A DNA stretch of 64,000 nucleotides from Candidatus Omnitrophota bacterium (GTDB lineage Bacteria > Omnitrophota > Omnitrophia > Omnitrophales > Aquincolibacteriaceae). Both the position numbers and the translations under genes were made by a program. Each line of letters begins with the position of its first letter. Position 1 is the first letter of the stretch. The notes below the pieces were generated by a model, which was not told the DNA's origin, ran no database searches, and worked only from the letters and a program-made list of their open reading frames with translations. Below, one piece after another: positions 1-46,593 of the stretch. The DNA is taken from the NCBI GenBank assembly GCA_035352955.1, contig DAOPYQ010000003.1, positions 208,206-272,205 on the forward strand, given 5' to 3'.

Positions 1-3000
1 TCGATGATCCGCCCCTGATACCTCGCGTCACTCCAGATCTGATCCGCCGTCACCTTACCCAGCGATTTCACCGCTTTTTCGTAGTACCAGGGATCCCACG
101 CCGCCCCGCCGCTCTTCCAGCCGACGATCCCGACCCCAAGCAACCTCCTCTTCGACACATTCTCATAAAGCTCTCCGACAGTTTTTACAAGGTCGATCGG
201 TTTGTTCGCGTGGAGATAAAGCGTGTTCTCGCCCATATTGACCGCCGCAAAACCAAACGTATCGCGCGCCTCTTTCGCCATCTTCACCAGAGCCCTGACG
301 AACTCCGGATAACTCCCGAGGTTCCACTCCGGCGTTCCGGGACCCTGCTGGTAATGTTTGACATATTTATCGAAAGACGCCGCTCCCAGGGTCCCTGCTT
401 CAAAGAGACCCTCCACCCAGTTGATCGGAGGATGACCCGGGAAATCTCTATCCAAAGCCGCTTTCTTCTGGGACAACCACAAAAACGCCGGCCACGACAG
501 CGAATAGCTGCCGTGACTGGCCACAACTTCTTCACCTTCGAATTCGTTGATAAGCCCGTTCTTCGGATCCGCTTTTTCGATCATCCGCGTGATCGGCTGA
601 ACTCCCGGTTTCCTCGGTTCCGGAACCTGAGCCGCGCCGAGTTTGTAGACCTCGGGGTTATTCTTGTTATAGGTCTGTCCATAGAACGCAAAACCTTCAT
701 CGATCGGATAATTGACCTCGAATTCGGGAGCGACCGCGGAATCCACCGCAAGGATCACAAGACGCGGGCCGACCTGAGAATCGTTATAGAGAACACGACC
801 GCGCTCCACCTGCTCCAGATAGGTCATGGCACCGCTCGGAGTCATCGTAAGCCCCTTATTTCTGAGCGAATGTCCCGCGGAAAGCATCTTCATCCTCGAT
901 CCTTCACCCGAGGTCAGGATCACAATAACCGTCTTGTCTTTGAATCTTTCCAGGACCTGCTCATTGGTAAGCGAAACTCCGGCCGCCCCCAACGATTCCC
1001 GCAATCCCTTCAAGATGGAATCAATGTGCCCGAGACTTCCCTCGCCGGATTCCGCCGCAATCACCAGGGGGATCTTGGAAGGCGAGAAAAGATTGGGTTG
1101 CTGCTTCTCGAGGAGTTTCCGCGTCTTCAAAACCGTTTCAGGGGACGTGATAACCATCGAAAGATCAACATCTTCGCCCGTCCGGATGGCGCGCTCAAGA
1201 CGGGCATTTGCTTTCTCAATATTATGCTGAACGAGATCCCAGCTGGGCACGCCACGGAGCTCGGCGCGGCCCTTGGTGCCCAAGATATCCTGGATCAACA
1301 CGATCGCTTGCTCCCGGGGCATCGTCGTTGCGGTCATAGATGCCCAGAGGCTCTTCGCCGTCACGGCGTCGAAATCCTTCTGCGATTCAAAGGGGAAAAC
1401 CCGGTCGATAAGCTGCGAAGAGCCGAAAGTCTCGCCCGGAAATTCGGCGGAAATATCCCCCCCGGTCTCACGAAGGACGAGATACGCGCTGACTTTCCCG
1501 TTCTTCTTCTGCCAGACCACGCTGTTCGGGACTTCACGTTTGTAAAGTTGCGGTATCACCAGTTTCAACGCACGGGCCACAACCGTCCAATCCGCGGCGC
1601 TCCAGCGCGTCACGAACACATCTTCCTCTTTCCAGTTTTCTCCCTCCGGCATCCCCTTGACCGGCCCGCGAACCTCTTCGACCGACAATCCGGTAAAGCT
1701 CTGATCAAGCCCCTCGGTGATCTTCCGACCTTCCGCATCCGATACCGCCGTCACTCGAGTCTCGTCCCATTCCGGCCCGAACGAATAGATCTTGGCATGA
1801 ATGTGAGGCTGGGACGAACCCGAAAGCGGCCCGTCAAAATGGATCGAAAGGTTCTGCGACTGCGCGACAAGCGCCGTCAGGTCGTCGATATCGCTATCGG
1901 TAAGTCTCTGGAGCAACAACTTGTCCTCCGCGTCCCAACGGGCCGGCACCAAAAGGAACGATCCCTTGGCATCGACTGGGCTGAGATTATGGACGATGAC
2001 CCATTTCCGGCCGTTCACTTCAACCACCGCGATAGGTTTCCGGTCACGAACCGAGAACTGCCCGCTGCAGATCGAACACTTCGTCTTGTCGTGGGTTTCG
2101 AAACGCGCTTTCCTCTCGGCAAACGCCGTGGGGCCTGTCGCGTTCGGCCGAATGCCCCGATGCCACACAAAACTCACTTTATAAGGTCCGACGACTTTTT
2201 CCTGAAAAACACCCGCGTGATCCTTACCCGTCAGGACCTCCGTCGCAAAATGTTCGATCGAAGCGCCATGGGAGGAGATCCTGAGGCCGCTACGGTACTC
2301 ACGGCCCGAAAGATCCCGCTGCTGACTGGTCACGTTCCCGCTCTGGATCATCGAGATCCATCCCGCGGTGAGCTCCGTGTTCCCGATCATCGCCGGGTGC
2401 CGTTTCATCTCGAAAATATCCGCTGAACCGGGCACCCGCCGTTCCTTCCGGAGCCCCTGCCCTTCGACTTGGGCTTTTTCTTCAGCCGTTACCGGCACGG
2501 TCATCATGATCGCGGCCGTTCCCGAAGGATAATAAGGATCACTGCTCTGCCCCGCGACGGGTTTGCCGTCTTCGAGCTTGAAAGCGTCTTTGCTGTTGGC
2601 CAGGATATGCGCGGCAACGATCGGATCGTCCTTGAACTCCGGCTCCAGGTTTTTCTGACGGATGAGATTCTGCATTTCTTCGATGCTGTAACCCTTGCCG
2701 CCGTCGGCCTCGCTCACATATTTCTCACCCGGGAGAACGATCATGACCGCGCGACCTTTCGCCGTCACGGCGATCAGGTCGTTCGGGTACCGGGCCGGGG
2801 TCAATTTAACGTAGAGTTTGTTCGCGGCAATAAAATATTCGCCGGTTTTCATCTCGCCCGCCGGTTTGGGCTGGATCCTGTGATAGCCCCAGAGCCAATT
2901 GGCGATCGCGCCTTCTTCGATCGCTTCGAGAACTTTCCCGTTCCGGATCATTTGGGCATACCGGGCCAGTTCCGCCATGGACTTCGGATCTCCGGCCTTT

Positions 3001-6000
3001 TCATTCTTGGATCTCGCTTCAAGGTCCGCGGCAAGCGCCTCGCGTCCCGCTCCCGTAAGATAAGGCGTCAGATCCATTTCAAAATAACCGCCGTTCTGCG
3101 CCGCTTTCAAGATCTCGGGGCGATCTTCCGGCACGATCGGACGGGCCTTACCCGACATAAGAATATCCGTATAACCAAGCGCCGTTCCGTATTGCGGCCT
3201 GCCGTCAGCTTTCCTGGCCATGAACTGAATGGAATTATAGGTCTGGTGCCCGTCGCTGAACTGGTGAGCGATCTCCGCCAGGGAAACGTTGTGCCGAACC
3301 GTCGCTTTCCCGTCCACGACCGTGTCGTTCATGATCCTCTGGCCGAACGTCGCGAAAGCGATCTCGTCACCGATGTGTTTCTCGGTCTTGTCGGCGGCAC
3401 GATAAACACGCACGCCGCCTTTGACCGAATGATCCGTTAGGAACCGGAAATCTTCGGAGGAAGCGCGACCGTCCTTCCAGACAACGGCCATGCTGTAAAC
3501 GCGCTGGCCGAACGGTTCCCCGCCGGAATAATAGAACTGGTGTTTGTTCCCGTCATACATCACGACCCAGTCGTTATGCATGAAATTGTGATTGGAATAA
3601 AGGACCCGGTGCTCTTTCGTAACGTCGCGGGATCCCGCCTGAGCCTCGATCGTTTCCCACGAGACATCCACGGGATTCGAGTGAGGCAAGGTTTCTCCCA
3701 TGAAAGTCTGCGTCCCGCCGATTTGATCGTCATAAAAATTCCCGTTCAACGACCCTGTCAGGACCTTCCCGCTCTTTGCGGTGAGCGTGACAGTTTTCAA
3801 CAGCTGATCGTTGACCAGGAGTTCCAGCCGCCCGCCCGCGGGAATAAGATCAAACGCCGGCGTGAAAGGAACCGACGATCCGACCTTCACGATCCCGGTG
3901 GCCTCAAACACCCGTCGTTCTTTACGCTCGCCAAACCGCCAGTCCTGATAGCCCGACACGCGGCGAAGATCTCCGACTCCGGCGATCGTCTTGAAATCCC
4001 AGATCAAACCCGAACGGAACTTCTCGTAATTCGGATTGGGATCCATGATCGGCTTGCCCAAAACGGGGTCGACATCGAGCATCGCGTCCTTCCGGGTCAA
4101 CATGGCCTCGGACTTCAAATGACGGGTCAGGTTTCCGGAAGCCAGATCTAGCATGAACACACCCGGCATCTTTTTGTGGGGGCTGAACGCGATCGGCTCC
4201 ACGAGACCGCCCAATGACTCCACGGCATTGAACGCCTTCTCCCAGTTCACGATCATAAACAAACGGTTGTAGGGATTGTCCGGAAGCCGCTGCGCTTCGG
4301 GTTTACTCTCCCACTCTTTGGAGAGCGCGCGCAAACGCGCCTTCACAGCCCAATCCTCGGTCGCCATGCCCTCCACAAGGAAAGAAAAGGGATCGCTGCC
4401 GCTAGTTCCCAGTCCCAGACCGCCTTTCTGCCTCGGGGTCGTGAAATTGTTAAGAGCCCAGTACAAAAGTTCCGTTTGGTGTTTTTTCTGGCGATCCAGA
4501 TACAACGCGTACATTTCGACCGGTACCGCGCTCTCCGGACGCAACGGGATCAGATCGTTCACGCGGTGGACCAGGAACGAGAGATCCGAAACCTTCCCCT
4601 GGTACCGCCCCTCCACGTACTTGTTGGCCGGCATTGCGGAAGGCGTAAATCTCTGCGCGCCCTCATCCCAGGTCAGGGAAAACCACGGCAATCTCGCGTT
4701 GGAAATATTGCAAGCGTGCCCGTAATTCTTCCTGTCAGGAACGAAGATCAGACGACCAGCCCCTTCCTCCTTCACGTACTTGAAAGGCATGGCATTATCC
4801 GGATTCATGACCATCACGATATTCCTCGGATCGAACCCGAAAAAGCGAGTGCGCCCGAAAGAAAGTTCCCGCTCGACCCTAAGGTCGCGCTCGACATCCT
4901 CGGCAACATTTTCGTTAACGCTGATCATCACGATCTTGTGTTTCAGAACCTCTTGGGGATCCAGACCCAGCGCCCGGCTCTGACTGACAAGCCCTTCACT
5001 CAGGGACAACAAGTGCCGGGCTCCCAATCCGAGATGTTTCGCCTCTTTCGGGAGCCCGCGCGGATCGTCCGCCTGTTTGATCAAACCCTCAAGATCCTTG
5101 ACCAGGTTTTCGACCGCCTGATATTCTTCACCCTCGTCCTTCACTTCCTTCTTTTCTACGGCAAGACGCTCAAGCTCCGCCTTCTGCTCTGCGGTCGGAA
5201 GATCCCCGATCTGTCCTTCGAGCGCCTTGAGTTCACCCGCGAGCCGCATAAAAGTCTTGACCTCAGGCTTTTGCGCCAATTCGCCAAGCACCTTTTTCTG
5301 ATCCGCCAAAACACGGGCCATCGCGGACCGGCGTTCTTTGAGGAGCTGGACCAGTTTCCAGGTGTCAAGATTCCACATGCGATAGGCGTTCTTGGTCTCC
5401 GGATTCTTCAAGTCCTTTTCCGTAAGAACGGCCGCGGGGCGCCCCTGGTCCTTATGCGCTTCATCCGTAAGACTTTCCCACAAACGCGTGGCCTCTCCTG
5501 CCGCAAAGATAAATTCCACAAGAGAACCGGTTCTCAACCCTTGCCGGGCGGGCTCAAGATCGGGATGCTCATCCTCCAGCCACAAGAAAGGAGCCGTCCT
5601 TAACGCGGGGACCAGTTTTTTCAGCCATGCCGAGTTAACGATGGACAGATCTTTGACATTCCCGCTAAAATTCGCTCGGTTCAGTTCATTCTCGGCTTGC
5701 TGCTTCCAGCGAAGGCTGAAGGAACGGTAGGCGATTTTCCTCAACGCCTGGCGTTCCATCGCCTGGGTCCACTCTCCCAGAGCCGCTTTATTCTCCTGGT
5801 ACAAACGGATCAGTACCAGACGCTCGAAGATCCGGAGGGTCAGTTCCGTGAGGGATTTCGCCAATTCGTCCGCGCGCAAATAAAGAGTGTTCTGGGCCGC
5901 CTGATATCCCAGATGCGGCATCACCCGCGGATCCGATACGACACGAACTTTCAGGACCTGGCGAACCCATTCTCCGTAAGGATCAAACGCTTTCCCCTCA

Positions 6001-9000
6001 GGTCCGCCAAACTCGGAAAGCGGCCAGGTAAAACCTTCCATCATCCGCATAGCATCGTCCGTCTTGGTGTGGCGGAGGCGGACGATAGAACGGCTATGAT
6101 AGCGCCCCCCCATGACCCGATCGATCTCTTCGGTCGCGCGATACACCGCCACACGCAACGATTCCGCAAGGGCTTCATCGTCTTCTACGCGAATCGAATC
6201 CAGGACCGCCTGGATCATATCCCGGCGAACGGGATCCGCCGCCTGATACTGCTGCGCCAGGGTCGACAATTCGGCGTTGGACAACAGACCAAGAATATCA
6301 ACACCGGCCTCACGAGAAATGACCGCCCGCGCCGTCTGGCGCTTTTCCACGCTCGGCGAATAAAGATCATTTCTGAGGTCCCAATCCGAGGCCCGCTTCT
6401 CAGCACGCAGAAAACCGCTATTGCGGATCCTTCGGTCACTGTATCTCAAAACAGAGGCCAGACTGGAAAGACCGGACGCGTCTTTGATATCAGCGATCCG
6501 GGCCTGCGGCGAGACCTCGGGATTATAGGTTCCCCGGATAGGAAGAATGCCGTCTTCATGAAAAACGTCCCTCCGCCTCATCATGGCGACCGAACGGATA
6601 AAATCCCCGGCCTTTATCGCTTCGTCCGAAGGCGGAATGGTCACATTCCCTTCGGGAAGCTCAAGAGTCCAGAACCCGGGAGTGGGCTTGTGCGCTTTCA
6701 ACGCCATGGTGAGCATCTGGTTATGTTCCCGAAGCCAGCGATACACCGGCCGGAAACTGACGATCTGGTGCATGCGGTTGAACGGCAGATCGGGAAGATT
6801 CAGTTCGGCCTGCGCCTGAAGCGAAAGAGTTTTCAGAGCCGCCTGGACCGCCGGCGTATAGGTCGCCAAACCCTCCACAAGCATTGAGAACGGCGCCGGA
6901 AGATCCTTGTGCCCGAGCGCCAAGCCGCCCTTCTGACGGGGTTCCGTCATATTGTTCAGGACCTCATAAAGCACCATCGCATTATTTTCCGAGGCGAGTT
7001 TTTCAAACAGAGCAAGCATGGGAATGTCCACAACGCTCTCGGGCCGCATCAGGATCATGTCATTGATACGGTGCACGATCCCCAGGAGATCGTCCGCGCT
7101 CTGGTCCTCCCAGGTCTGGATCACCGGCTCGGCGACGGACACGAACTGCCGCCGGACAGGATCGAACGAATAGGTCATGTAAGGAATATCGGCGTTGATC
7201 AGATTGAAAGCGTGGTTGTAGTTCGCCCCGCGATCCGTGTACACAAAATCCCGGGTCTCCGGATTCCAGGCGAACGCAGGCGGTTCGTCGGGATTGTAGA
7301 CCAATTTGACGTTGTCGGGGTTCAAGCCGAAAAAGTTGTTCTCGACAAAAGTTTTTCCGATGTCCTCAAGGATCTGCCGGTTAAACGAAATGATGATCTT
7401 TTGGTGGCTCAACGCCTCCGAAAAATCAAAGCCGTACTTTTGAGCGGCCGCCCGCAAGCCTTCAACAATCGTCCAGATATGACGTTTGCCGAGGCCCCAG
7501 TCCAGGCTCCCTTCCGGAACCCCTTCCCGGGCCACTCCAATCAGGTGGTCCAGTTCACCCAGTTCCGTTTGCTTTGCTTTCTTCTGAGCTTCGGTCAGGG
7601 CACTTTCCGGGGCAACTTCCTTCAAGAAGACCTGACGCTTCGCCTCAAGCTCCGGCAACTTGTCCCGAAGGCGCTGAACGATGCTCCAGCCGTTGAACCG
7701 CCACATCCGGTACTGAGGATCTTTCGCCATCTCCGGCGTGATAATGCCCCACTTCACAAGACTTTCACTCAAACGGCTTGCCGCTCCGGCCGCAAAAACA
7801 TAGTGGATCACACGCCCTGACCGGACGGCTTCTACGGCCTTGGAAACATCGATCCCCCGGGTTTCATCTTCATAGAAAAGAATCGTGGGCATCCGGAGAT
7901 CGGGAAGCATGGCCTCGACGCTTCTGGCGTTCAACGCATCGGCGGCTTTTTCGTCATCGCTTCGCTTGACGTCGCTCGGCCCTTTGGTCCCGTTCGGGGA
8001 CATCGCCGCATATTTTTCCACCGAAAAATCCGGCGGCAAAAAGTCCTTCATGCGCTGGATCGCGTCCAACCGTGCGGGGAAAGACTTGTCGCGGGCAACG
8101 TCCCGAACCTTCTTTTCAAGGTCTTCGTTCCACCCCCCGTATTCTTTTTCGGCGCGCTGACGGGCAAACAATTCGATCGCCTGCTCGATAAAATAAGCCG
8201 TCACCCAGCTTTGCGGCTTCTCCTTGATATCCGACTGCGGGATGTAGATCGCATTTTCCCGCATCTGATAGATCCAGTCAGGCGCCTTGCCTTCCTTCCC
8301 CACCGCAAAAGGAACGATCCCCGACAAAACCTCATGAACGTTAACCGTACCGAGGCTCCGTTCTTTCCCGTCCACCCGAACGTTCGGAAGGACCACCACA
8401 AGCCCTTCGGTGGCACGGAGCGCTTCGATGAATTTGGGATGATTTTTGGCCACATAAAAATTCTTCTCGGCCATGTAGAACATTTTCAGGACATAGGTCG
8501 CCGCGGCATGCAACTCCGGTTCCACAAGCGGATTTTCAGCCTCGGCGGAATTGACGATATCCAGCAACCGGTATTTGCGGGCATTATTCTTCTCTGTGAT
8601 CAAAGCCTCGATCACCCGGTCAGCGTCATTGTCCCACCGCAACATATTCTGGATGTCCAGTCCGAGCGCATGGCCCAGCATGATCCGGGCCGCCAACCGT
8701 TTCTTGCGGGCCAGAGGATCCTGGCTGTCACGAAGGAACAACCATTCGTACGCCTGGCCTTCAGACGACGGCCGAACGTCATCGCGTTTTTCGGCGCGCA
8801 AATCCGGAGAGACGAACTTGTCTTTGCTGGCGAGAAGCCCCGCGAGATCATTTAGCGGGCTTTCGAGCGCACGGAGGCTCTCGCTCACCGCGAGCTTCTT
8901 GGGATCACGCGGCTCCGCAGAAAGCTTCGTGACAACCGCCTGGATCATAGCAAACGCCTCGAGGGGACGGCTGTCGATCGCCAGGCTGACCGCCGACAAC

Positions 9001-12000
9001 TGCGCTTCAACTTGATCATCCTTCGGCAAGAATTTAAGGATCGCGGATTTCTGCTCGTCAAAAAGTCTCTGGATACTTCTGCGGCGGACTTCGATGGCTT
9101 CACTCGTCGTGACCCGGTTATAGAAATCCGACTTTACTTCCGTGCGCAGCCCCAGGCCCGCCTTCACGAGATACGAGTCCACCTCTTTTGCGTCCAGGCT
9201 CGCGGCTTTCAACCCCGCTTCGATCTGCGCTTCGGTAAGATCTTTTTTGTCCGCGGTCACGGTCACGACCCCCGCGGCTTCCAGAACGTGGACCGTGTGG
9301 TTCTCTCCCAGGATCGCTCCGACCTCGGCAACCGGCGTATTCGGTCTTCCCATGAAAACAACGACCTGCCCCTTAGAGATCATGGTCCAGTGCGGGATCT
9401 GCTCATCCTGCAGGACCTTGATCAGCTTCATCGAACTCGCGGTAAGCTCCTTTTTGTTCACGCCGCGGAAGATCACATGGGAGAGCGGCCACTCTTTGAC
9501 CTGAGAAAGGGCCACGTTTCCGTCCCTTCCGATCGTCTGGGCGCTCGACGCAAGGCTCTCGAACGGCAATCCGAACGTGGTCACATGGATGTGGAGCTGC
9601 TCGGCCGTATACCATTCGGTATTCTGAAGGAACTTCATCCCGGGATTCTGTTCGGCCAACGTCAGTGAGGTATCGACGTCGGCGGCAGTAAGGATATTCG
9701 GCCGCACCGTCTCGTCGTCCGAGATCATCAGCGTGTGGTAAGGGACCGTAAGTTCCTTCGGCGCTACCATGAAATATTTCCGGCCAAAAGCCAGCGGGTG
9801 GAAAAGGATCCCTCGCTCATTGAGAAACTTCTGTATCTTTTTGAAATAAAATCTCGTGAGATCCGTAGGCCGGTTCGGCTTCAGGCCGTCAGTGTTGGGC
9901 TTGCCCTGAGCGGCCGGGTCGATCGCCAACAGGAATTTTCCTCTAAAAAGGCGTTTGGGAATGTTGGCCTGGTTGTCCCGGACATAGGCATTCCCGCTCC
10001 AGGCGTTTTCAAAACCATGCTGAAAGCTATCCAAAGCGACTTCGTTCCCGCTATTGTCCAGTACCCTCGCAAGCTGCGGCATCTGTTCGAGCGTTGCGAT
10101 CGACTGTTTCGCGACTTCGCTTCTCGGAAGAGGCGCCGACCACGGATCTAATTGACCGTTCGCGTCTTTGTGATCCGGCCACGTATCGATCTTGTTCACT
10201 TCGGAAAGAGCAAGCTTGCCCTTCTCGACCGCGGTCTCATCGGACAGAGCGGCCACGTTCGGAAGATACGGAGCGTAGCTGAAGATCCGCATGTCCTGCG
10301 GGGCGATGCCGAGCGCCTTGGGCAATTCAACGACAGCGACCGCCCCGGCCCTCGCCTGCAGCCACGGCGTCTGGATCACAAGCACGCGCTTCGGCGAAAA
10401 ACCTTTCGGGAAATTTGTGGCGGCGCGCATCACTTTCACGGAATCGCGGAAATTAGACCCGGTATTCCGGGAAGTGATCTCCGTCGCGGTCACAGGAGCA
10501 CCGTGTTCTGCCATCACGTTCGCGTAATACGTCGCTTCCGGGATCCGCTGCCGGGTCTCAGGGTCCGTATAAACTCCGGCGGTATCGGCACTCATCCCCC
10601 ACATACCGCTCGTGATAACCGGCAAGTCCAGGTTCGCGCCACGAAGCGTCTTCACGATCTCCGCGGCATACAAAGGCACCTGATCATCCGACGAACCAAG
10701 CACCAGGACCCAATCCACATTATTCAAAAGATCCGCTTCGGTGACCGGCGTCCAAGTACCGGTCGTGCCGTCATAAACCGCCCGTTGCGCGAGATGATCC
10801 TCAAGAAGCGCCTGTTGATTCACGTCCAGCGTCGCCCGGTCTTCCGGCGTCAACGCCCTTTTCTCCGAACGACCCGCCGGCGCTGCCTCCGGACCGGCAG
10901 ACGCGGCCCGTTGAGCCAAAGCGCGCGCAGCCTCTTTCCCGGCTCTTTTTTCATTTAGCCAGGCTCTGACGGAATAGTAAACGCCATTATTACTGAACCA
11001 CGGGAAAAAGCTGACCAATACGATCATTGCGAAAATGGGCCAAAAGACCGGGAAAAAGTTGATACAGGCGAACAACAGCCCCATCGTCACGACCGTTGCG
11101 GAAATTTGATACCACTTCCCGAAGGAACCGATCCACCAGAGCAGGCCACCCATCAACCGGATAAAGGTACTGGCAATGATGAACGTCGCCCACCCCATGA
11201 ACACCGGATGAGCCCCCTGGAGAGCAAGACCAAAAGCCTGGCCGCCCCCATCCATCGACATCCCCCCGGTCCCTGTCCCCGCCGCGACAAAGAACGTGTT
11301 CGGGTCGAACTGTTTGTTGAAAAGTCCGAAGAACTGCTGGAGCGAGTGAGCATAAATCATCGCCACCGTTGAGAAAGCAGCAAGGATGCCCCGAGTCATC
11401 GACATCCGATCCGCCTGGACCGTCCCTGTCAAATCCCCCTTCTCTTCGAAAATATTTCCGTCCCAGGAATCCCCAACGGACTTCGACAAAAACCCGAACC
11501 AGAGAGGCATCGTCAGCGGAAGGTAATAGTACGGCACGACACGTTCATGGGAAAGAATCGGCAGAAGCAGACCCACCGCGATCAGGATCCCTGAAACCAG
11601 GAGAAGATGCGAGCCGATCCTGCGGAACGCCACGGCCTCATAAGGCTTCCGGACCTTGGACCCGCGGTGGTATTCATTCCACAACCAGAAGAGACACCCC
11701 GCAAGCGCCGCGTAAAGCGCTCCGGCCGTCAGGAAAGGAACCCCGAAAACGACTCCCACAATAAACGTAAGAATAATGGCCCCGCCGATAAGAGGCCCCT
11801 TTTTCGTTTTGCCGTACGCGTCAAGCCACAGTTTCAGGAACAGGGTAAAAGAACTCGCGTGTTTCGACGCGATAAAGGGCTTGATGTCTTTCTCGCTCTT
11901 AAGCCCACGGATCTGGCTAAAATGATGCTTCGGGTCCTTGAGCCAGTCCTTTTCCAGATACTGCGAAAGCCGGTGTTTGTATTCATCGGAACGAAGCGCC

Positions 12001-27000: not shown

Positions 27001-30000
27001 CGGCGGACCCCCACGCGCAGGTTCCAGGCATAAGCCTGAAGGCCCAGCATGTTATCGATATCCGGCATCGCGGCCATCTTCTCAAGCGCCAAGCGGATCG
27101 TTTCAAACTCGGCATAAAATTTCGGATAAGAACCGGAATTAAGGAGATAGCGGCTCAAAAGGAAAGCATTCCCCGCCGCAACGGAATCCTGCGTGGCATG
27201 CATCAACCGATGATACTGGGACGCGCGATCCTGCCCCCCGGCAAGAACCTCGCTATAAGCTCTCGAAGAGGCGATTAACTGCGCACGAACCCCAGCGATC
27301 TCCCGGACGGAGTTCTGTTTCTCTCTTTGAACGTTCGGGTTCTTTTCAGCCGCCGCGTCCCGTGCGAGGTGCTGTTCCACGGCTTCGAGCTTGTTCACAA
27401 GGACATTCTGATCGGCCACAAGCTTTTCGATCCCGGCCTTGCCGGAAGCCAGGACGGTACCGTCCCCGGCAACGACTCCGGGAAAAGGATCGAGAATATT
27501 TTCCGCCTGGGCAGAATCCTTGGCGGCGATCTTGGCGGAGGCTAAAAGCCCGTTCAGAGGAAATTCCGTCCCGTTGACCAGCTGCCGAAGCGCGCGCATG
27601 GTTCCCGCATAATTCGAACGCGTCGCGAGTAATTTTGTTTCGGCCTGCCCGACATTGGCTTCGGCGGCAGCCAGCTGGACTTTCAACTCATCTCGAGGCT
27701 CTGCCGCGCCGCGGGCTTTCGTATCAAGATCCACGGTCTCGCGAAGTTTCTCAAGAGAACGCCTCTCACTCGAAAGCTGATTGCCGGCGGCAGTCACGAG
27801 GTCCCTTTGATAGCGAAGAAGACTTGTCAAACTCCTCACCGCGGCTTCGAGCCGCTGCGCGGCATCATCAAAATACTGGTCCGCGCTCTCGCCGGAAAGG
27901 CGGGTCTGGACCTTTTGTGAAAAATAGGAAATATTCATGAGGGTCGCTTTAATGCCGACGCCGATCTCGCCTTTCAGCTGATCCAGGCCGCTGACGTTCC
28001 AACCCGTGGAATTATCATAGCTGACCCCGTAAAGCGCGGAAGCAAAGACCCGTCCCCACTCAACGGTCCGGGTCTGCAGGGCATCCACATCCTTTTTCTC
28101 TCGCGCGGTGCTGAGCTGGGTCTTCGCAGCGGCTTCATAGAGCGCGCGGTCGAGCAAATCCGCGTTTTTCCCGCCGTCCGCATCGTAAAAATCAAGCCAA
28201 CTGTCCGCGTCCTCGATACGTGACTGATCTTCCTCCGCAAATATTTTCGCGTCATTTTCCGTGAAGGCCTGCTCCCGCGACACAGGCGCCTTCCATTCAA
28301 ATGACCGCTCCGACAATCCTGCGTCCGCAAGAGCCTTGCGGATATATTCGGCATGTTTGGGATGTTTTTGCTGGATCTCATCAAAACGCGCCTTGAGGAT
28401 CTTGAGCGCCTGATCCGCCTGGCCGATGCGCATCCGGACCAGTTCCTGGTCTTTGACCGTCCCTTTCATCTGGCTTTCCATCGACAGCGAGTTGATGTTA
28501 GCGCTCAGATAATCGACGGGCTGGCGTTGACCTTCGTTCTCTTTGGTCACTCGCCCGGCATCCACGGCACCGATCGACTCGTTGAACATTTTTGCTTTTT
28601 GCATCGCGGCGACGACTTTTTCCTGGGCCGCAAAATCGGCGGCCTGCCGCTGGTGATCCCGTCTGAGCCGGTCCAGTTGCCGGAAATCGTCATCAAGCTG
28701 ATTCTGAAGCTGACGGATCTGGTCGACCCCGTTGCGCACGTCATACTGGAATTGTTCCTTTTCGACCCCGCGATCAAAAAGGTCCTGATTGCTTAACCAA
28801 AGATCGGCTTTGAGCCCGGCCCTCAGGGTACCGTCCGTCGCGATCGAAACTTCAGGAATCGCGACCGTCGCGTTCACGCCCGCAAGCGGCTTTTCCTGCG
28901 CGATCCCGGATTTGATCCGGGCGGCCGCGGCAAGGATCCGCGCTTCAATGTAGTTACGGCTCAGGCCCATTCCTTCCATGCTTTCCTGGACGTTTTCCAT
29001 CGTGAACGCCGCCGCCGGGTCCTGGATCTCGGCATTCGGTCGATGATTGGTCAAACGCTTGATCTCCACGAGACGGGCTTCCCGGCTCGCGCGCAGGACC
29101 TCTTTCTCGCCTTCGATCCCCTTGATCTTGCTGTCAATGATCCTGAACGATTCGGGGGTCTTCGTCACACCCGGCTGCGACTGAATGTCGGTCTTGATGC
29201 CTTTTAGCCGGAAAATCATTCGATCCGCCATCGTCATTTGATCGTTCAGAAGAGCGACCTCATAAGCATTTTCATAAAAAGAGCGTAACCGGGTATCCGC
29301 GACAAGTTTGGTGTCCGCTTCCCGGGACAAAAGTTCGGCGGCGCGGACTTTGGTCTCCCAAGTACGGCTGAGATTCACGGGCTCGAAACGGAACACAAGC
29401 TCTCCGTTGACCAAGTCGGCCGTTCCGACTTCTTTCACATAGGTTTGTTGCTCGGTCGTAAGCTTCGTCCGGGCAGCAGCGGCGGTCGGGATATGGATCA
29501 CCGTCCCCTGATCGGGATCCGCACTGGGCGTATAATCCAGTTTCGCAGGAGTTGTCGTAGTCGTCGTGACCGTGATCTTCGTTTTTTCCTGACGAGGCGT
29601 CCATTTCACGTTCGCGTAAAGTTGGAACCACTTCTGCAGAATGCCCATCGCCTCGAGATTCGATTTCGCGATCTCCTGATCCTTCTTGGCCATCAGAAGG
29701 TCCAGATTGTTCGCCAAAAGATCCTTCGCCATCCCGTCAAGAGTAGGCGCCATTTTGTCCTGGGTGGTAGCCCACGTGGTGCCTGCGGCCAACCCGGAAA
29801 AACCGGCGATCGGAAAATCCTGCACGCTCGTGGCGGTACGATCCACAAAAGATTTTGGAACAAACGTTTTTTCGCGCGCTCCTGGCGCAACAAAAGTATT
29901 GGCAGCACCGCTCATCGCGGGGGCCGGCGGCGTGGCCGCCTCCGGGTTCAGGAGCGGTGTCATAGGCGCAACCTCTTCGGTCGCGGGCACGCCGGTCACG

Positions 30001-33000
30001 CCGACCATCTTTTGGGCCAACTGGTCCAGCGTCTCTTCGACCATTTTGAGGTCTTGGTCGTTTCGAACGCTCCGCTTTAAATAATCCACGCGATCGTGGA
30101 ATGCGGCCCGGTTTTTGTCATCCTTGATCATGCTTTCATTGCGCTTCATGGTGGCATCGAAAACTTCCAGCGCGAGTTCCAGCTCCGCAGGGACTTTTTC
30201 TTTGACTTCCTGAACCTTCTGGATGTCTTGCGGAACGCGCGGGACCGCGGTTCCCATAACTTTCGCCGGGGTTGGAGTCACTTTCGCCGGGATCGGCGCA
30301 GATGTCACTTTCTTGATCGCTTCGGGCGAAAGCAGATCCCCGGAACCGGGCAACACCACCGGCGGCAACTCACGCTGCCTCGCCGTCGCCGGTTTCGCGG
30401 CTTCCGCCGGATTCACCGTTCCGGTTTTCGAAACCGCCTCCGTCCCGGAAACATTTTCTTTCGCCGCGTCCTCTCTGGCAAATTTGTCCGCGAGCGTCCG
30501 TTCTTCATCCGTCATCGGTCCCACAGGCTCGGGGGCAAGCGGGATCACAGTCCCCTTGGATTCCTTGGCAGGCATCAATCCGACGGCGCTTCCGAGGAAT
30601 TTCACGACCTCCACAGGCCATCCTGAAAAAGTCATGCCCTTCCCCGTCGCGGAACTTCCGGTTTTCTCCGGAACATAATCCAAACGGGCCGGCCCCTCAG
30701 GAGCGATCAACATCTTCGAGGCCTCGAATTCAAGATCGGTGAAGATCTGCTGAGGATCCGCGCCGTTCTTCAGGGCTTCTCTCATCGTGACCGTCGATTC
30801 ATAGAAAGCAGTATCCCGGTATTGCGGATCCACCTGGTCCCTGAGGTTTGCCACACGCCGGTCAAACTCATCCACCGGACCCGCCCATTCCTCGCTCTTG
30901 GCCGGCTCCGCGATCACAGCGCCGGCCCCGGCAGGGCCTTCCACCATAATGCTCAGAACACGGACGGCATCCGTGGTGGCTTGCTCCGCTTCAGTCCCCC
31001 TCAGTGCGGCCGTCTTCATATCGGCCCCAAAGAGTTCTACGGAACCGCTCACTTCGATCGTCTCGTTATACGGGTTCAGGTTCCCGCCGTTCATAAGCCA
31101 GTAAAATTTGTTCTCTTCCTTCCCGGTCGTCCGGTTCAAAGCGCCCTTGGCCTGGCCGCCGATATAAGACAGAACATACGGGACCTCTTCCCGGGGAATG
31201 GCCACCACACCGCTCTTCACCCGGTTAAGACGCTCGGAAAAAATCCCCCCGATCGCACGCAACGGTTCCGACGCGGGATCCACCGAATACCGCACATAAA
31301 GCTTCCCATCCGTCCCGAGAAAATAATTCCCGCTCTCGAAATGATGCCCAAAACCGCCGGCGTCCTTCATGCTTTCAAGAACGTCATCCCGATAACTCGA
31401 CGGCAACGAGCCACTCTTCGAAACGCTCTTCAACCACGACTCCAGATGCGCCTTCGCCGCCTCCGGCGTCACAGCAGCCGGCTCCACCACGATCTTCTGC
31501 GCGACCGCCGGCTCCGCCACTTTTACTTCCGTGACAGCCAACGGCGTTTCCGCCTTCGGCGCAGCCGCGGATTCAGCTTTAGCCGCAACAGCTTTTTCAG
31601 CAACCTTGGGGGTTTCGACCTTCACTTCCGTTCTCGGCGCAACCACGGATTCTTCCGCGCGCTGGTTTACCCCGCTCAACCGATCCGCAACATTGGCCAG
31701 TTTTCCTACCGTAGCAACAACCACCGAGGGCATCATCCTGACCCCGACGCCCCCGATACCCGCTGCGGGCTGCTTCGAAGTTTCCGGAACGGTCTTGGCG
31801 CCGGACCCCTTCGCTGAGATCGACGTCCCGGCGGCCATCCGTGACTGGTACGCCCGGAACTGTTCTAAAAGTATTTCAAAGTGGGATACAGGATCTCCGT
31901 TGGGACGGCTCGTGCGATACACCGACCAGCCCGCCAGAGCGGCTTCAAGATCCTTGATCCGTTCGCGGGGAATCTTTTGCGTGGACTCCCGATTAGCGCC
32001 AAAAAGCTTTTCCACTGTAAACCGGACTGCAATGTCCCCGTCCTTGTCGACAAAATAAGCTCCCGGATTATATGAAGTCATGGTCCAGAGAGCCTTGCGC
32101 ATCGCGCTTTTCTCGTCACTCGGAATATCGTTGGAATTCTTCACCCACGTTTCCACGGACTCACGCGCTTTCACCTGAGCCTCGGTATCGAACGACACGT
32201 GGTCCGGAGCCCTGTCGTTCCGCACGATGTCTTCCCCAAGCTTCACAAAACTGCCCGGGATCGATTTCACTCCGCGGACAAGGCTGGTCCCGGCTTTGGC
32301 GACGGCATGCTCGACCGTCTGAACCGCGCCGCGCTTCTGATCGGCCGGAGCATTCTTGAGAACCTCGGTCGTTTTCGCGTAGGCTTCGATCGCTCCGAGC
32401 ATTTCCTTGTCGTCTAAACGAACCAAAAGGATCGGTGTTCCACCTGCCGCACGCTTGAAGATCCACCACGACCGGTTCTTCCTGGCAACTTCCAGTGCTT
32501 CCCGCGACGATTTCCCTTTCGCGAGCTCCCCCGCGATCGTGTTAAAAACCCGGTCATAATCCTCGGGAGCGGCGTTGCTGAAGCTCTTGTCCAGGATCAC
32601 CTTCTTCAGATGATCTTTCGCAGCCTCTTGGGCATTTTCCAAATCACCCACTTTAAATTCCTTCACAACCGCCGCCGGCGTTTCCACAGCCACGGGTTTC
32701 TCCGCAACTCTGGGGGCTTCGGTTTTTACTTCCGCCTTCGGCGCAACCACGGGTTCAGCTTTAGCCACGACGGGTTTTTCAGCAACCTTGGGAGTTTCGA
32801 TTTTCACTTCCGCTTTCGGCGCAACCACGGGCTCAGCCTTGGCCACGACGGGTTTTTCAGCAACCTTGGGAGTTTCGATTTTCACTTCCGCTTTCGGCGC
32901 AACCACGGGCGCAACCTTAACAACAACGGGCTCAGCCTTAGCCACGACGGGTTTTTCCGCGACTTTCGCAGCAATCACCGGCTGCGGCATTTCAGCCCTC

Positions 33001-36000
33001 AGCTGATTCATGGCCATCGTGACATATTCTGCTTTCCCCGGACGCGGACCGGTGCCGAAAACTCTTTCGGCTTCGGATTCGACCTTTTTCTCCGCCGCGG
33101 CGATCCTTGCCTGCCAAAGCTGGTACGGGGTCATCGGTTCCGAGCCGGCATCCCCTTCAAAAACATGCCGTCCCACAACCTTACCCGCTTCGTCCCTAGC
33201 AATCTTGACGGTCACCTGGACGTTTCCGGTCGTCTTGTCCGCCACTCTCGTCACTCCGGCCGCAGCCGTAAGCCGGTTCGCCCAGAAAAGTTTGGACATC
33301 TTTAAATCAACGAGCTTTTTTCCTAAGGCGTTCTTGGTAGCAGCATCGGTAGCCGCCGCCCAATCCCGCTCCATGTCCCGGACATCTTCTCCCAAACGCC
33401 GTTCACGCCATGGAGCAATCAAGCCGTCCAAGACCAAATGCTCCCCGCCTACCACCGCGCCAACCACTCCGGAGTTCACGGTATTCGTGGTAATCCCAAG
33501 CAGCCCCACCGCCCCAAGGGTATCCGCGAACGTGGGCTGTTCACCGCTTCTTTGCATCTCGGCAAGCTTCACCTGTTTGTCGTGGTCCCCTTCAATGGCT
33601 TTCACAAGCGGCGCGATAAAAGTAATATTGAGCCATTCATCCAGTTTTTCCGCATAGCTAACGATCACGCTGATCTCATGAGTGACGAACCACATGCTGA
33701 ACGTCCCGAAGACCATCCCGATCCAGAATTTCCTGCTCGTCAGAAGATTGTGCCTCGCCTGCCGTTTGACGACGGCTTCCGGCGCGAGCTCAGAGAGCCG
33801 GGAGTCGATCGGGGAACCATGCTGGGCCAAAAGACCGAGAAGAGCCTCGTCCACCGAAGAACTAATGACGCTTGAATCCAAACGGTCGAGATCAAAAGCC
33901 TTTGCGGAAAGGTACTGCTCCAGAAGCCGAAGAAGCATGACTTTTTGGTCCGGCGACAAATCACTTTTCTGAACTGACTGGACGAACAGGACGAGTTCCT
34001 GCGCCGAACCTGACTCCAGCAGAAGCCCCTGATTTTTAAGGGTCCGTACCGCCTCTTGAATTGCACGGGGATCGCGTGGATTAAGCGAAGGGTTCAGGGT
34101 CCTGAGGATCGTGTTCGTCGCGACACGGACTCTAAGCTGAAGCATGTTCTGTTTCAGCTGGGTAGAATACTGGAGAAGAAAGTTCAGCATTCCGGAACTG
34201 CCGAACGCACCGATCGTAAAATGAAATGTTTGCGATTTGATGAAATCGACGGCCGGAGTATTCCAGACCAACCCGTTGTTCAAGAGGTCGAATTGCGGGC
34301 CCATGTGCGGCATGGGAATATTAATACCGAATACATTCAGCGCCCGGGTCGCGAGATCCGCTCTCCCGGCCGTTTCAACCCCCGCATGCAAAAGCGTCGG
34401 ATCAAGCCCCATATGCATCCCGCCAAACACCGCGAGGCCCAGCAACGTGTGGATCACGATCTTCCGGACAATCCAGCCGGTCGTCACGTCCTTCCCGCTT
34501 TTCCGGAGCTCCTGGTACTGGCGGTAATCACGGATCGCCATAAAAGACCAGACCCCCGCCATCACGATCAAAAACACGGGGAGATTGGTCCCGACCAAAG
34601 TCAGGGCAACACCGCTTACCTGGCTGTAGAGCATCAGACGGCCGCGGTTCTTGATAAAATTGGATAGCCCGGCGATGCCGCTCATCTGGAGCGCTACCCA
34701 CATGTAATACCCCGGAGGGGTGCGCTGCAGAACCAGCATTTTTCCGTTGAAGGTTTTTTCACTTTGAAACCGGCTCCAGAAACCTTTCCCCGCTTCGTCC
34801 CGGATCTCTTTTTCGGAGGCCTTGATCGTCGCTTGGGCCATTTCGTCGGAAAGCCAGCGCTGGTTCCTGCCGCCGAGCCAGAAATACTGGATCGGGATAC
34901 GGATGAACTGGATGAAGAAACCGTCCAGAAGATGATAACCGACACCGAAAAGGATGTGAGCTGTTTTGCCGAGCACGAACGCGATACCCTTTTTGAAAAA
35001 GGCTCCTCGGCCGCCGGCTATCTGAACTTCCTTACGAGCCTCTGCTTTGACGCCTTCCCAGAAAAGAAAAACCACGGCACCAGCGATCGATCCAACGATC
35101 GCAATCGGCAGAATGGCCGCCATGCCGGTCACTCCCAAGGTGACCGCAATAGCCCCCGTCAAGATCCCGCTCAAAATCCCGGTAACCAGTACGCCTACCC
35201 GGCGTTTGTCCACTTCGTCAGAGGATTCTCCGAACGCCTTGCTCTTATGGATCCGGACAAATTCCGAAAATTCCTTGATCGACAAATTGACCTTGGTCCG
35301 CCACCGGAGTGTGGAGTCCGAGATCTTAAGCTCGCCATACTTGCCGGCCTCAGGATTCGCGACTTTACCTCCTATATAGAAGGTCTCCCCCAGGGCCGTC
35401 TTAATAGCCCATGCCTGCGTTCCGGGCATTTGTTTGACTTCAAAGCCAAGCATAATGCCAAGAGCCCGCCAGAACGCTACGGCAAATCCTATAGCGGTAA
35501 ACCCGAAAACGATTGGGACCGAAAAACCCAAAAAGCTGAAGATCGCCGCGAGAACAATCCCCACTCCCGTAAACACGGCCAGTGTCTTGAGAGCACGGAC
35601 GCTCAGCAGCCGAAACAGCAGTGTGGGTCCGGCCTCGGCAAGAGCCGCCCCGCCCGGAGCGTTCAAAATACGGCCATATTCAACGGCAACCCTTTCCCGG
35701 ACTTCCGCTTCTCCCGTCGTTGCCTGTACTGCAACAGGCGCGGTGGCGGCTTGAGCTGCCGGCGCAGGGGCCGGAGCGGCAGCGGCGGCAGCTTCTCTTG
35801 CCGCAGCTTCATCCATGAGTTTCCTTTGGGCTATTTTCTCGGCAACCTTCGCCTGGACCGCCTCAATTTTCAGGCGGACCATATAAACGCTCAGCGGAAT
35901 CTGATGTTCGACTAGCAAGCGGATCTTCGGAGCGATCTCGGTCGCGAGTTTGTCCGCGCCATACCATATAAGGATCGTGTTCAGCGTATCCTGCGGGATC

Positions 36001-38606: not shown

Positions 38607-39050
38607 CGGATTGCCGTCCTCCCTTTAAATTAAGACTGGGATATTTGATTAGCAAACAAGCCTAGAATAAACTTATTTTAAAGTCTTATAAACCTCACTA
38701 TGAATATACACAATCAACTTACATTTGTCAAATAAGTATTAATTTTTTTTAAGGCCATAAGTCATTGAAAATAAATGATTTATGAAAATAGAGAAATTTG
38801 ACCTTTTAAATTTTTTAGACTCCCTATTACTCCTTATAGCAATGTAAAACAATTGACTTTAGATATTTTTTCGTCTATTCGATTTGGAATTGAAACATAT
38901 CATACTACTTTGATAAAGTTTTAGAAAATAAATTTGTTTTAATAGACTACCTCACCCCGCGGTTATTTTGACGATCGAAGAAAGACAAGCTTCAAGAAAA
39001 ATCCGTCAAGGAAAGATTTCAACGCATCGAAGCAAACAAAACGTCCTGCA
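38607..39050 (-). promoter_or_regulatory. AT-rich leader and putative promoter region of the giant gene
   Basis: Seen in sequence: about 400 bp that is conspicuously AT-rich against GC-rich surroundings. It contains no supportable ORF and ends at the giant-gene ATG. A candidate minus-strand -10 box TAAAAT (plus 38675-38680) sits about 70 nt upstream of the ATG. No convincing -35 box was found. The promoter assignment is an inference. Confidence 0.4.
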
Positions 39051-39051
39051 G

Positions 39052-39117
39052 AAAAAAAAAAAAAAAAAAAAATACCCGACAGCGAAAGACATCGGGTATT
39101 TTGGGTGGACCTGCCCT
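39052..39117 (-). terminator. Rho-independent terminator on the minus strand. Hairpin acccgaca...tgtcgggt followed by T21 (= plus-strand A21 at 39052-39072). Copy 1 of a duplicated 45-bp element (39073-39117)
   Basis: Seen in sequence: read on the minus strand the element is agggcaggtccacccaaaatacccgatgtctttcgctgtcgggta followed by 21 T. Stem is acccga/tcgggt with a 12-nt loop. Confidence 0.6.
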
Positions 39118-39273
39118 TTCCATTTCACTCCAAGGGCGATACAAAACATCGAGGGGAATCGGCTCCTTCGCTTGTCTCATAAAACAAGTCAAGCTGCGGT
39201 AGTCCACCCGCCCTTGAAACATGAAATCCCGTCATGTTTCAGACCAGGGCTTCTTTCAATCCCCCTTCAACTT

Positions 39274-39327
39274 AAACAAAAATACCCGACAGCGAAAGCT
39301 ATCGGGTATTTTGGGTGGACCTGCCCT
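39274..39327 (-). terminator. Rho-independent terminator on the minus strand immediately downstream of tRNA-Ala. Copy 2 of the 45-bp element (39283-39327, 2 mismatches to copy 1), followed on the minus strand by TTTTTGTTT
   Basis: Seen in sequence: tacccgacagcgaaagctatcgggtattttgggtggacctgccct on plus. On minus this reads as a hairpin plus a U-rich tract about 40 nt after the tRNA 3' end. Confidence 0.55.
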
Positions 39328-39366
39328 GAAGGGCTGGCCCAATAACCATTAATTTTTAAAAAAAAT

Positions 39367-39439
39367 TGGACCTGAGGGGAATCGAACCCCTGGCCTCCGC
39401 AATGCGAATGCGGCGCTCTCCCAGCTGAGCTACAGGCCC
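39367..39439 (-). tRNA. tRNA-Ala, anticodon CGC
   Basis: Seen in sequence: the rc is GGGCCTGTAGCTCAGCTGGGAGAGCGCCGCATTCGCATTGCGGAGGCCAGGGGTTCGATTCCCCTCAGGTCCA. It folds as a cloverleaf with a G3:U70 pair in the acceptor stem (the alanine identity element) and an anticodon loop TTCGCAT. It has GTTCGATTC in the T-arm and a discriminator A. CCA is not encoded. Confidence 0.9.
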
Positions 39440-45289: not shown

Positions 45290-45424
45290 AGTGCAAGTGC
45301 TCGCCCTGCGGGAAAACCTTTTTAAAACCTGTTGTTTTTGGAAGATGTAAAAACGGTGAGAAAAACCTGCTGAAGGAGGATCAATAAAGTGACCCCTACG
45401 GAAGGACCCGGGGTCCCCCCGTAC

Positions 45425-45814: not shown

Positions 45815-46067
45815 CTCATCCTCCTTTTCTTTTTTTCGTTGTCGAAGTTTTTGAAAAAACCTCGAGCGGTGCTTCAGTTTAATATCGGCTTTTGGGAGTT
45901 TTAAATTAGTAATTTCGCCTGTTACGCCGAAAAATTAACACATAACCCCTGCTTTGACAAGGGATAGGGACGCTTTTTTTTGAGAAAAACCCCAGGGGAT
46001 ACGTCCGGCAAAATACCCCCATCTCTAACGTGGCAGAAGAGCAGCTAACCCTTTACATTGCAACGAG

Positions 46068-46571: not shown

Positions 46572-46593
46572 GCGAAGGCTCCGGAAAGATCCG

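Follow-up and report, generated by a model that had tools for sequence, protein, structure and literature searches.

Proteins of up to 85,804 aa have been described in Omnitrophota (West-Roberts et al. 2023, bioRxiv 10.1101/2023.11.21.568195). In that study, in which proteins of ≥10,000 aa are called "large" and those of ≥30,000 aa "giant", the giants have many transmembrane (TM) regions and often (in most cases) a divergent SecA-DEAD domain, and genes for type II secretion systems (T2SS) are frequent neighbors; moreover, some have an N-terminal C39 or S8 peptidase domain by the signal peptide that "might cleave the giant proteins". The more recent catalogue by Nielsen and Lui (2026, bioRxiv 10.64898/2026.06.07.730766) gives a maximum of 147,155 aa for the phylum and 5,761 proteins of ≥10,000 aa. 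Of these catalogued proteins, 94% have TM helices or a signal peptide (median, 16 TM helices), 15% lack any Pfam or InterPro match, and 80% are sequence singletons; a multi-enzyme class rich in sugar-metabolism domains was also described. Here, we present an analysis of a 64,000-nucleotide stretch of DNA from a Candidatus Omnitrophota bacterium (assembly GCA_035352955.1, contig DAOPYQ010000003.1, positions 208,206 to 272,205; referred to below as the window), the minus strand of which carries the first 12,868 codons of an open reading frame (ORF) of 13,915 codons. We found that this ORF is a genuine single gene. Moreover, we conclude, with a probability of roughly 70%, that it encodes a membrane-anchored protein of the documented class of long Omnitrophota proteins, for which we propose a role at the cell surface and in glycan chemistry.

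Results

A single gene of 13,915 codons

The sequence-only reading had described a single minus-strand ORF without stops from an ATG at 38606 to position 1, with an in-window part of 12,868 codons and more than 1.4 MDa that was still open at the window edge. The gene is placed as follows:

1..38606, minus strand: giant gene, codons 1-12,868 of 13,915 (stop scan, codon usage, GC3 and independent gene calls)

Based on the stop scan, this frame has 0 stops from 38624 down to position 1, i.e., 12,874 codons, and its first ATG is at 38606-38604. The two sister minus-strand frames over the same DNA contain 489 and 499 stops, and the second-longest stop-free stretch anywhere in the window has 807 codons. 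From the composition, ~524 stops are predicted for the frame, giving a log10 P(no stop) of about −232 (P ~1e-232). The in-window product measures 12,868 aa and 1.43 MDa, as had been described. The gene does continue past the window edge, as the same reading had it, but not far: the remaining 1,047 codons and the stop lie past position 1 within ~3.1 kb, so that the window holds the first 92.5% of a protein of 13,915 aa with a mass of 1.543 MDa and a pI of 6.9. The C-terminus is known from a further protein sequence, P0023, and from two gene calls, which are described below.

The coding character of the ORF is that of its surroundings. The GC contents at the three codon positions are 0.608/0.406/0.670 in the giant gene vs 0.596/0.398/0.675 in 12 neighboring genes, and a codon-usage model trained on the neighbors scored the annotated frame best in 12/12 tiles of 1,000 codons. 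An alternative genetic code as the source of the long ORF was considered and rejected: all three standard stops are missing from the frame, and the neighboring genes terminate normally in TAA or TGA.

The gene is intact in independent assemblies

Using the adjacent gene for a 277-aa hydrolase, we found the same locus across samples in public assemblies. ENA contig ERZ795026:NODE_168 is 100% identical to the window across the 20.8 kb compared, and the gene call in the ENA assembly is 13,915 aa. In the JGI assembly 3300010352, where the gene lies within a 448-kb contig, the gene call is 13,941 aa. The gap of 26 aa between the two corresponds to exactly one additional 78-nt unit in JGI, and the unit belongs to the following array:

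32692..32930, minus strand: 78-nt tandem array (26 aa, A/P/K/V/E-rich), 3.1 copies, with a copy number that differs between assemblies

As a third source, P0023 (5,491 aa), obtained in an exhaustive HMMER search, is identical to the window protein in 4,444/4,444 overlapping residues and then continues for 1,047 more. In the NCBI metagenome-assembled genome (MAG) GCA_035403665.1, the gene is split into pieces of 1,903 and 6,507 aa; the pieces are separated not by a stop but by 100 N that scaffolding placed within the 78-nt array. Between strains, we found no substitutions within the 9 kb of the giant gene open to comparison. The claim of the sequence-only reading that the ORF is not an assembly artifact is thus upheld by two independent assemblies with the intact gene and by a third source that is 100% identical over the overlap.

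A conserved N-terminal head with the residues of a hydrolase superfamily

A search with the N-terminal 600 aa identified 22 relatives, and all those with a named organism are from Candidatus Omnitrophota/Omnitrophica MAGs. A scan of species-representative genomes for this region, the head, gave 77 loci, and all titled ones are from Omnitrophota.

36987..38429, minus strand: conserved head (aa ~60-540), TIKI/TraB/Ere/ChaN-like alpha/beta core with a ~300-aa helical insertion

In an AlphaFold2 (AF2) model built from the family alignment (pLDDT 80.7, pTM 0.70), the head forms an alpha/beta core that is split by the ~300-aa helical insertion; the core has a parallel beta-sheet with flanking helices and is superposable on members of the TIKI/TraB/Ere/ChaN superfamily. 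The TIKI-type catalytic set comprises a Glu-x-His motif, a further Glu at +28, a conserved Arg and, ~29 residues beyond this Arg, another His (PMC6254334). In the head family alignments, D88-x-H90, E118 (+28) and H491 are invariant or ≥90% conserved, while R463, 28 residues ahead of H491, is invariant. The H90-E118 (+28) and R463-H491 (+28) spacings mirror those of RRSP and Bcr135. A weak match to the ChaN/Tiki Pfam family Cofac_haem_bdg was obtained for 3/23 family members (best E, 0.0023, below the cutoff), and the window protein itself gave no match to the curated Pfam families Cofac_haem_bdg, TraB, Erythro_esteras and TIKI. From the fold model and the conserved residues, the head probably belongs to the TIKI/TraB/Ere/ChaN fold superfamily, and it is plausible that it is catalytically competent.

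Membrane segments, low cysteine content and a Pfam-dark body

The N-terminus of the protein precedes the head with a hydrophobic segment, and the Kyte-Doolittle hydropathy scan used to call TM helices, a crude method, placed 15-18 more candidate helices in three clusters, giving 16-19 in total:

38517..38573, minus strand: N-terminal hydrophobic segment (aa 12-30), preceded by Arg10 and with Arg14; no lipobox Cys
34416..35606, minus strand: TM cluster 1 (aa ~1001-1397), 4-6 predicted helices
17724..19097, minus strand: TM cluster 2 (aa ~6504-6961), 4-5 predicted helices
11013..12569, minus strand: TM cluster 3 (aa ~8680-9198), ~7 predicted helices

In the AF2 head model, aa 11-30 form a helix, and aa 12-30 are predicted to be a signal-anchor or signal peptide. 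TM cluster 1 lies within a block (aa ~1000-1720) that is conserved at 26-43% in five relatives.

Cysteine is nearly excluded from the protein. There are 7 Cys in 13,915 aa and 0 in aa 1-7434, compared with 0.68% in the neighbors; the chance probability of the Cys-free stretch is ~1e-22. The same holds for the bodies, i.e., the parts after the head, of 52 related long ORFs (among loci L009-L085; 135,767 residues), in which the median is 0.0% Cys vs 0.7-0.9% in neighboring genes. Because many bacteria keep cysteine out of their exported and surface proteins, we take this exclusion as a sign that much of the protein is exposed outside the cytoplasm.

The sequence is highly complex and has hardly any repeats: apart from the 78-nt array, self-BLAST detected two old duplications, one pairing aa 7804-7971 with 8124-8385 and the other aa 10109-10727 with 10897-11558. 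Flexible A/P/K/E-rich linkers are present in the body. The tiled Pfam search that had been proposed with the sequence-only reading was run on 1,000-aa tiles (with offset tiles over the boundaries to ~aa 7,500) and returned nothing above noise (E ≤ 0.01) in the window part; neither Ig-like, cadherin or RTX repeats nor condensation, adenylation or ketosynthase domains were found by Pfam. A phmmer search of PDB sequences with the entire in-window part found no match. Word-index searches with aa 10100-11600 and 11600-12500 also gave no match, in a database that apparently holds only proteins of ≤~1,000 aa.

C-terminal modules resembling nucleotide-sugar enzymes

Downstream of TM cluster 3, we identified five modules by duplication, profile and Pfam searches:

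9207..9809, minus strand: probable HIT-like module 1 (aa ~9600-9800; LHIHV at aa 9671), weak profile matches, Ap4A_phos_N E 0.18
6369..8264, minus strand: UDP-sugar-pyrophosphorylase-like copy 1 (aa 10115-10746; FAAGAASRL at aa 10271, PRQKGGL at aa 10556), from the duplication and profile search
3870..5843, minus strand: UDP-sugar-pyrophosphorylase-like copy 2 (aa 10922-11579; FAAGEATRL at aa 11034, PRQKGGL at aa 11391), from the duplication and profile search
1227..2156, minus strand: probable HIT-like module 2 (aa ~12151-12460; PHIHAK at aa 12267), weak profile matches, Ap4A_phos_N E 0.13
outside the window, minus strand: NAD-dependent epimerase/dehydratase (extended short-chain dehydrogenase/reductase), PF01370, aa ~13065-13345, E 1.9e-11

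The epimerase domain (44.3 bits vs a cutoff of 20.9; GGTGMIG at aa 13068 and YAISK at aa 13341) is the sole Pfam domain above threshold in the whole protein. The two pyrophosphorylase (UDPGP)-like copies are 34% identical to each other and define a module of ~620 aa with 88 relatives among 1.84 billion representative proteins; none of the 10 relatives scanned has a Pfam domain at E ≤ 0.01. When a profile of 22 sequences of this module was searched against PDB, the top 8 matches were all UDP-GlcNAc/hexosamine pyrophosphorylases (E 1.5e-5 to 0.012), with 2yqc (1.5e-5), 1vm8 (1.1e-4) and 4bqh (1.7e-4) as the best, and no other family scored better than E 0.2. The profile alignment spans the AGGxGTRLG loop and the next strand.

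The HIT-like modules lie on either side of the pyrophosphorylase-like pair. The motif in these blocks is NHLHFQ or NHIHFQ in relatives and LHIHVT and PHIHAK in the window protein, which keeps two His and has lost the third position. Among 13 weak matches of the HIT-like profile in PDB, 8 are HIT proteins (best E, 0.028). The two blocks are probably, if weakly supported, HIT/GalT-like modules. Altogether, the C-terminal block resembles a group of modules for converting or binding nucleotide-sugars.

Head and body evolve at different rates

Similarity to all relatives ends near residue 570. The ten closest relatives are 75-90% identical to the window protein up to aa 550 and ~40% identical at aa 550-600, with background levels beyond. 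By phmmer over the loci, aa 1-600 are matched in 70-77, aa 600-800 in 15-24, and aa 800-3,900 in ≤5. In ~60/77 loci, the head-initiated ORF runs beyond the DNA fetched, and it exceeds 3,900 aa where the full 10-kb flank is present.

Head identity does not go along with body sharing: there are pairs of loci in which the heads are 89-94% identical and only 0-7% of the bodies is shared, and there are others that have nearly the entire body in common at a head identity of 81-84%. The upstream gene order GNAT-SPOR-...-patatin-hyp-ligase-hydrolase is common to many head loci, which are therefore positional orthologs; these include several of the discordant pairs, for which the flanking proteins are 65-76% identical to those of the window. 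At this one syntenic locus, heads are 75-94% and flanks 65-76% identical, but BLAST often fails to align the bodies. The absence of BLAST matches had suggested a wholesale replacement of the body. We gave up this idea when iterative HMMER searches found distant, colinear counterparts of aa 3040-4410 in ≥8 relatives. Part of this region forms the following block, for which no solved or Pfam relative was found:

27327..29489, minus strand: body block (aa ~3040-3760), distant, roughly colinear counterparts in ≥8 close relatives

Judged from these comparisons, divergence is far more rapid in the body than in the head or the flanks, and an exchange of segments between bodies is possible.

The head also occurs in shorter proteins. 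Together with the UDPGP-like module, it is present in six other proteins of 1.2-3.9 thousand residues; therefore, the giant gives the impression of a compact architecture that has been expanded. In a distant Omnitrophota (locus L007, 10001-16971; JGI 3300031576), the head homolog has only ~2,300 aa, in ORFs of 972 and 1,336 aa, and lies in the same LepA/S26...GNAT/SPOR/PilZ/YajQ neighborhood, so that giant size is not universal for head-bearing genes. In two further loci (L010, CAIOAT010000044.1, 1161-9470; and L019, 3-7565), a separate long gene between the hydrolase gene and the head gene carries counterparts of window aa 9250-9770 and 11645-12035. The corresponding C-terminal modules of the window protein are therefore separately encoded in these loci. 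Finally, some genomes have two or three head-bearing long ORFs (L035/L059, L054/L075, L064/L081, L066/L074, L045/L052 and L049/L072/L085), and the head family is therefore paralogous within genomes.

Upstream control region and neighboring genes

The sequence-only reading had assigned the gene a defined start, a ribosome-binding site (RBS), an upstream in-frame stop, an AT-rich promoter region and terminators, and we located all of these. The in-frame TAA is at 38627-38625, upstream of the ATG, and the GC content at 38-40 kb is 0.47 vs ~0.56 elsewhere in the window.

38617..38626, minus strand: RBS AAAGGGAGGA, ~11 nt upstream of the ATG
38703..38731, minus strand: sigma-70-like, near-consensus promoter TTGACA-17-TATATT, 11/12 matches, in the AT-rich intergenic region
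39069..39312, minus strand: two repeat copies (39312-39279 and 39102-39069), each with an intrinsic terminator, after the gene for tRNA-Ala

The promoter sits ~100 nt upstream of the start of the giant gene. The gene for tRNA-Ala(CGC) is at 39367-39439, and the region 39069-39330, placed between it and the promoter, contains two direct copies of a ~50-nt unit (GGCAGGTCCACCCAAAATACCCGAT...GTCGGGTATTTTT), each a strong intrinsic terminator. The twin terminators are predicted to insulate the giant gene against upstream transcription.

A comparison of the window with the JGI strain over 20 kb revealed, besides the repeat copy, only 29 mismatches, all within 100 nt. They cluster at 38952-39049 of the window (~11340-11440 of locus L002), directly after a 22-T homopolymer; the JGI version is the same stretch with bases turned to T, and two other contigs (L004 and L006) end there. 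An invertible switch upstream of the promoter was considered as the cause and rejected, as the 29 mismatches are T miscalls after the homopolymer.

Outside the giant gene, the window is unremarkable bacterial chromosome, in which every credible gene (38600-64000) is on the minus strand; this fits the reported one-strand gene bias of Omnitrophota replichores. The neighbors encode an alpha/beta hydrolase (277 aa, adjacent), an acyl-CoA ligase, a cyclic nucleotide monophosphate (cNMP)-binding patatin, two PilZ proteins, YajQ, SPOR proteins, a GNAT, signal peptidase I, LepA, Rpe, an M16 peptidase, RuvX, TrpA, TrpB, BatD, TPR proteins and others. Just upstream of the giant gene, at 43220-47960 (also L001 3437-7170), the genes for the patatin phospholipase-cNMP-binding fusion, the two PilZ proteins and YajQ form a signaling cluster, which stays syntenic with the head gene in many relatives. 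PilZ and YajQ are cyclic di-GMP-binding families. In the 55014-56245 region, the RuvX ORF has 261 aa, of which the Pfam domain covers only residues from 123 onward, and it overlaps the TrpA ORF (55442-56245) by ~360 nt; the true start of RuvX is probably an internal codon.

Discussion

Here, we infer that the giant gene most likely encodes a fast-evolving, membrane-anchored surface or host-interaction protein with glycan chemistry. According to this model, the polypeptide would be inserted through Sec via its N-terminal anchor, and the TM clusters would thread the inner membrane. The head would be an active hydrolase, either a peptidase or an esterase, just outside the membrane; its substrate would be either the giant polypeptide, which it would trim, or an external ester or peptide. 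Self-trimming has a parallel in other giants, whose C39 and S8 heads have been proposed to act in this way. The Cys-free, fast-diverging body would be extracytoplasmic and would make contact either with another cell, as host or prey, or with the envelope of its own cell, while the C-terminal modules would bind or convert nucleotide-sugars for glycan modification.

Several observations weigh against this model. Neither of the UDPGP-like copies matches Pfam PF01704 even at E ≤ 10. In both copies, the Gly-rich loop reads AAGxAxRL instead of the GGxGTRLG of the UDPGP family, although the KGG motif is kept, and the AF2 model of this module, which was based on a two-sequence alignment, has a pLDDT of 35.3. 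Similarly, the HIT-like modules remain below the Pfam thresholds and have HxHxT/K in place of HxHxQ/H. The UDPGP-like and HIT-like modules may, therefore, be binding domains or inactive. As for their location, the TM count is 16 or 19 depending on the threshold, which does not fix the side of the membrane on which the enzyme block lies. In two of the compact relatives, there is no TM helix between the head and the UDPGP-like module; this would place a nucleotide-dependent fold on the side of the exported head, which is awkward for catalysis outside the cell. For the head, a Foldseek comparison of the whole model with PDB gave no significant match. Finally, features described for many Omnitrophota giants were not found: no 1,000-aa tile has a Pfam match (E ≤ 0.01) to a divergent SecA-DEAD-like domain, of which a very divergent copy could escape such a search, no dockerins were detected in the Pfam tile scans, and the 25 kb upstream contain housekeeping and signaling genes only, with none for a T2SS, type IV pili (T4P) or glycoside hydrolases.

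We considered four other explanations. That the ORF results from a collapsed or chimeric repeat assembly, or from several genes wrongly fused, is extremely improbable. It is true that the contig derives from a short-read metagenome assembly, that the 78-nt array differs in copy number between assemblies, and that one NCBI MAG of the same organism has the gene in two pieces; however, this split is the scaffold gap inside the array. The only repeats in the sequence are the array and two old duplications (~30-35% identity), so that a collapse of repeats cannot have made the ORF. Moreover, the whole gene is intact in the ENA and JGI assemblies, which are one repeat unit apart, the third source is identical throughout the 4,444 aa of the C-terminal half that it covers, and codon usage is uniform along the gene. 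We also regard it as very improbable that the ORF is a non-functional relic or unexpressed. Most of the body has no detectable homolog outside close relatives, which would favor a relic, but 13,915 stop-free codons cannot persist without selection, the codon usage is native, and the promoter, RBS and terminators are in place. Furthermore, a long head-initiated ORF is kept in most of the 77 loci, and a related Omnitrophota giant protein has been detected by proteomics, as cited in the literature.

The two remaining alternatives concern the product rather than the gene. It is possible, though on the unlikely side, that the gene encodes a polyprotein, i.e., that the ORF is translated in one pass or via internal starts, with subsequent cutting of the product, perhaps by the TIKI-like head, and that a mature 1.5-MDa molecule does not exist. 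The head keeps the catalytic residues of a superfamily of hydrolases, among them endopeptidases such as Tiki and RRSP, and cutting of this kind was suggested by West-Roberts et al. for the N-terminal C39 and S8 domains of other giants; homologous modules exist as shorter separate genes, as in the upstream gene of L010 and the head-module proteins of 1.2-3.9 thousand residues, and the body contains flexible linkers rich in A, P, K and E. Against this, cleavage sites and internal starts are without direct evidence, and the TIKI superfamily also holds esterases and non-catalytic binders such as ChaN. In any case, processing of this kind is compatible with the surface protein that we propose. By contrast, a cytoplasm-facing, membrane-tethered scaffold of nucleotide-sugar enzymes for the cell's own envelope glycans would not be a surface protein, and we consider it unlikely. 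UDP-sugar pyrophosphorylase, HIT/GalT and NAD-epimerase folds normally depend on UTP, NDP-sugars and NAD from the cytoplasm; an even number of TM helices (16, at the stricter threshold) together with an N-in orientation would leave the C-terminal 4,700 aa in the cytoplasm; and a sugar-metabolism module class exists among the long Omnitrophota proteins (Nielsen and Lui). However, cysteine is excluded over the whole length, the bodies of positional orthologs are extremely divergent, and the N-terminus has an export signal, which together argue for an extracytoplasmic location of much of the protein and for diversifying or relaxed constraint on it. Such a pattern is atypical for housekeeping biosynthetic enzymes, and the signature residues of the modules are altered.

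Going beyond the single gene, we tentatively speculate that the head marks an undescribed Omnitrophota family in which a strongly conserved hydrolase is joined, at a sharp junction near residue 570, to a body that changes by diversification or exchange much faster than the remaining genome. The locus would then be polymorphic and serve in interactions with a host or prey, and the head would process or activate a variable giant "cargo"; we regard this broader idea as doubtful.

How does the giant gene compare with known systems? The sequence-only reading took proteins of this size to be extremely rare in bacteria. This does not hold for Omnitrophota: thousands are catalogued, and a membrane protein of 13.9 thousand residues is therefore expected there. 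With 13,915 aa, the protein lies above the 10,000-aa limit for "large" and below the 30,000-aa limit for "giant" proteins, a modest size for the phylum given its maximum of 147 thousand residues. Its similarity to the other long Omnitrophota proteins extends to an N-terminal signal-like segment, to 16-19 TM helices (where the median is 16), and to a sequence that is near-unique outside close relatives and as Pfam-dark as 15% of the catalogue. With its sugar-nucleotide enzyme-like content, it resembles the "multi-enzyme / sugar metabolism" class, with modules too diverged for Pfam, and, as in the reported C39 and S8 heads, an N-terminal hydrolase-like domain adjoins the signal. The window genes are also co-directional, as in complete Omnitrophota genomes. 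Unlike many of the Omnitrophota giants, it has no detected SecA-DEAD-like domain, dockerin, TSP3 or other high-copy repeat and no T2SS/T4P or glycoside hydrolase genes within 25 kb upstream, and its TIKI/TraB/Ere-like N-terminal domain is, by term search, mentioned neither in West-Roberts 2023 nor in Nielsen and Lui 2026.

Giant adhesins, RTX/MARTX toxins, nonribosomal peptide synthetases and polyketide synthases are also very large single polypeptides, and MARTX toxins carry the TIKI-fold effector RRSP. The window protein differs from them in that it lacks their repeats and domains, is almost non-repetitive, and has many internal TM helices. For the head, the comparison set is the TIKI, TraB-PrgY, erythromycin esterase and ChaN superfamily (EreC, 6xcq; Bcr135, 2rad; ChaN, 2g5g; HopBA1, 5t09; RRSP, 5w6l). 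The head deviates from this set by the helical insertion of ~300 aa that splits the core, by an Asp instead of a Glu as the first acidic residue, and by a sequence identity of 10-17% with neither a Pfam match above threshold nor a significant Foldseek match; moreover, it makes up only the first 4% of a polypeptide of 13.9 thousand residues. Likewise, the UDPGP-like copies share the nucleotide-binding loop region and the KGG motif with the UDPGP family (UAP1/AGX1 and UDP-sugar pyrophosphorylase; PF01704), from which they are set apart by the altered loop, the missing Pfam match, and their arrangement as a tandem pair embedded in a giant membrane protein. Altogether, the gene adds one well-delimited, multiply assembled example to the known long proteins of Omnitrophota. 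The useful gain lies in the anatomy of an otherwise Pfam-dark protein, i.e., the head, the module pairing, the cysteine exclusion and the contrast between head and body, while the compact homologs, residues H90, E118, R463 and H491, and the nucleotide-sugar modules provide handles on the processing, orientation and use of such giants.

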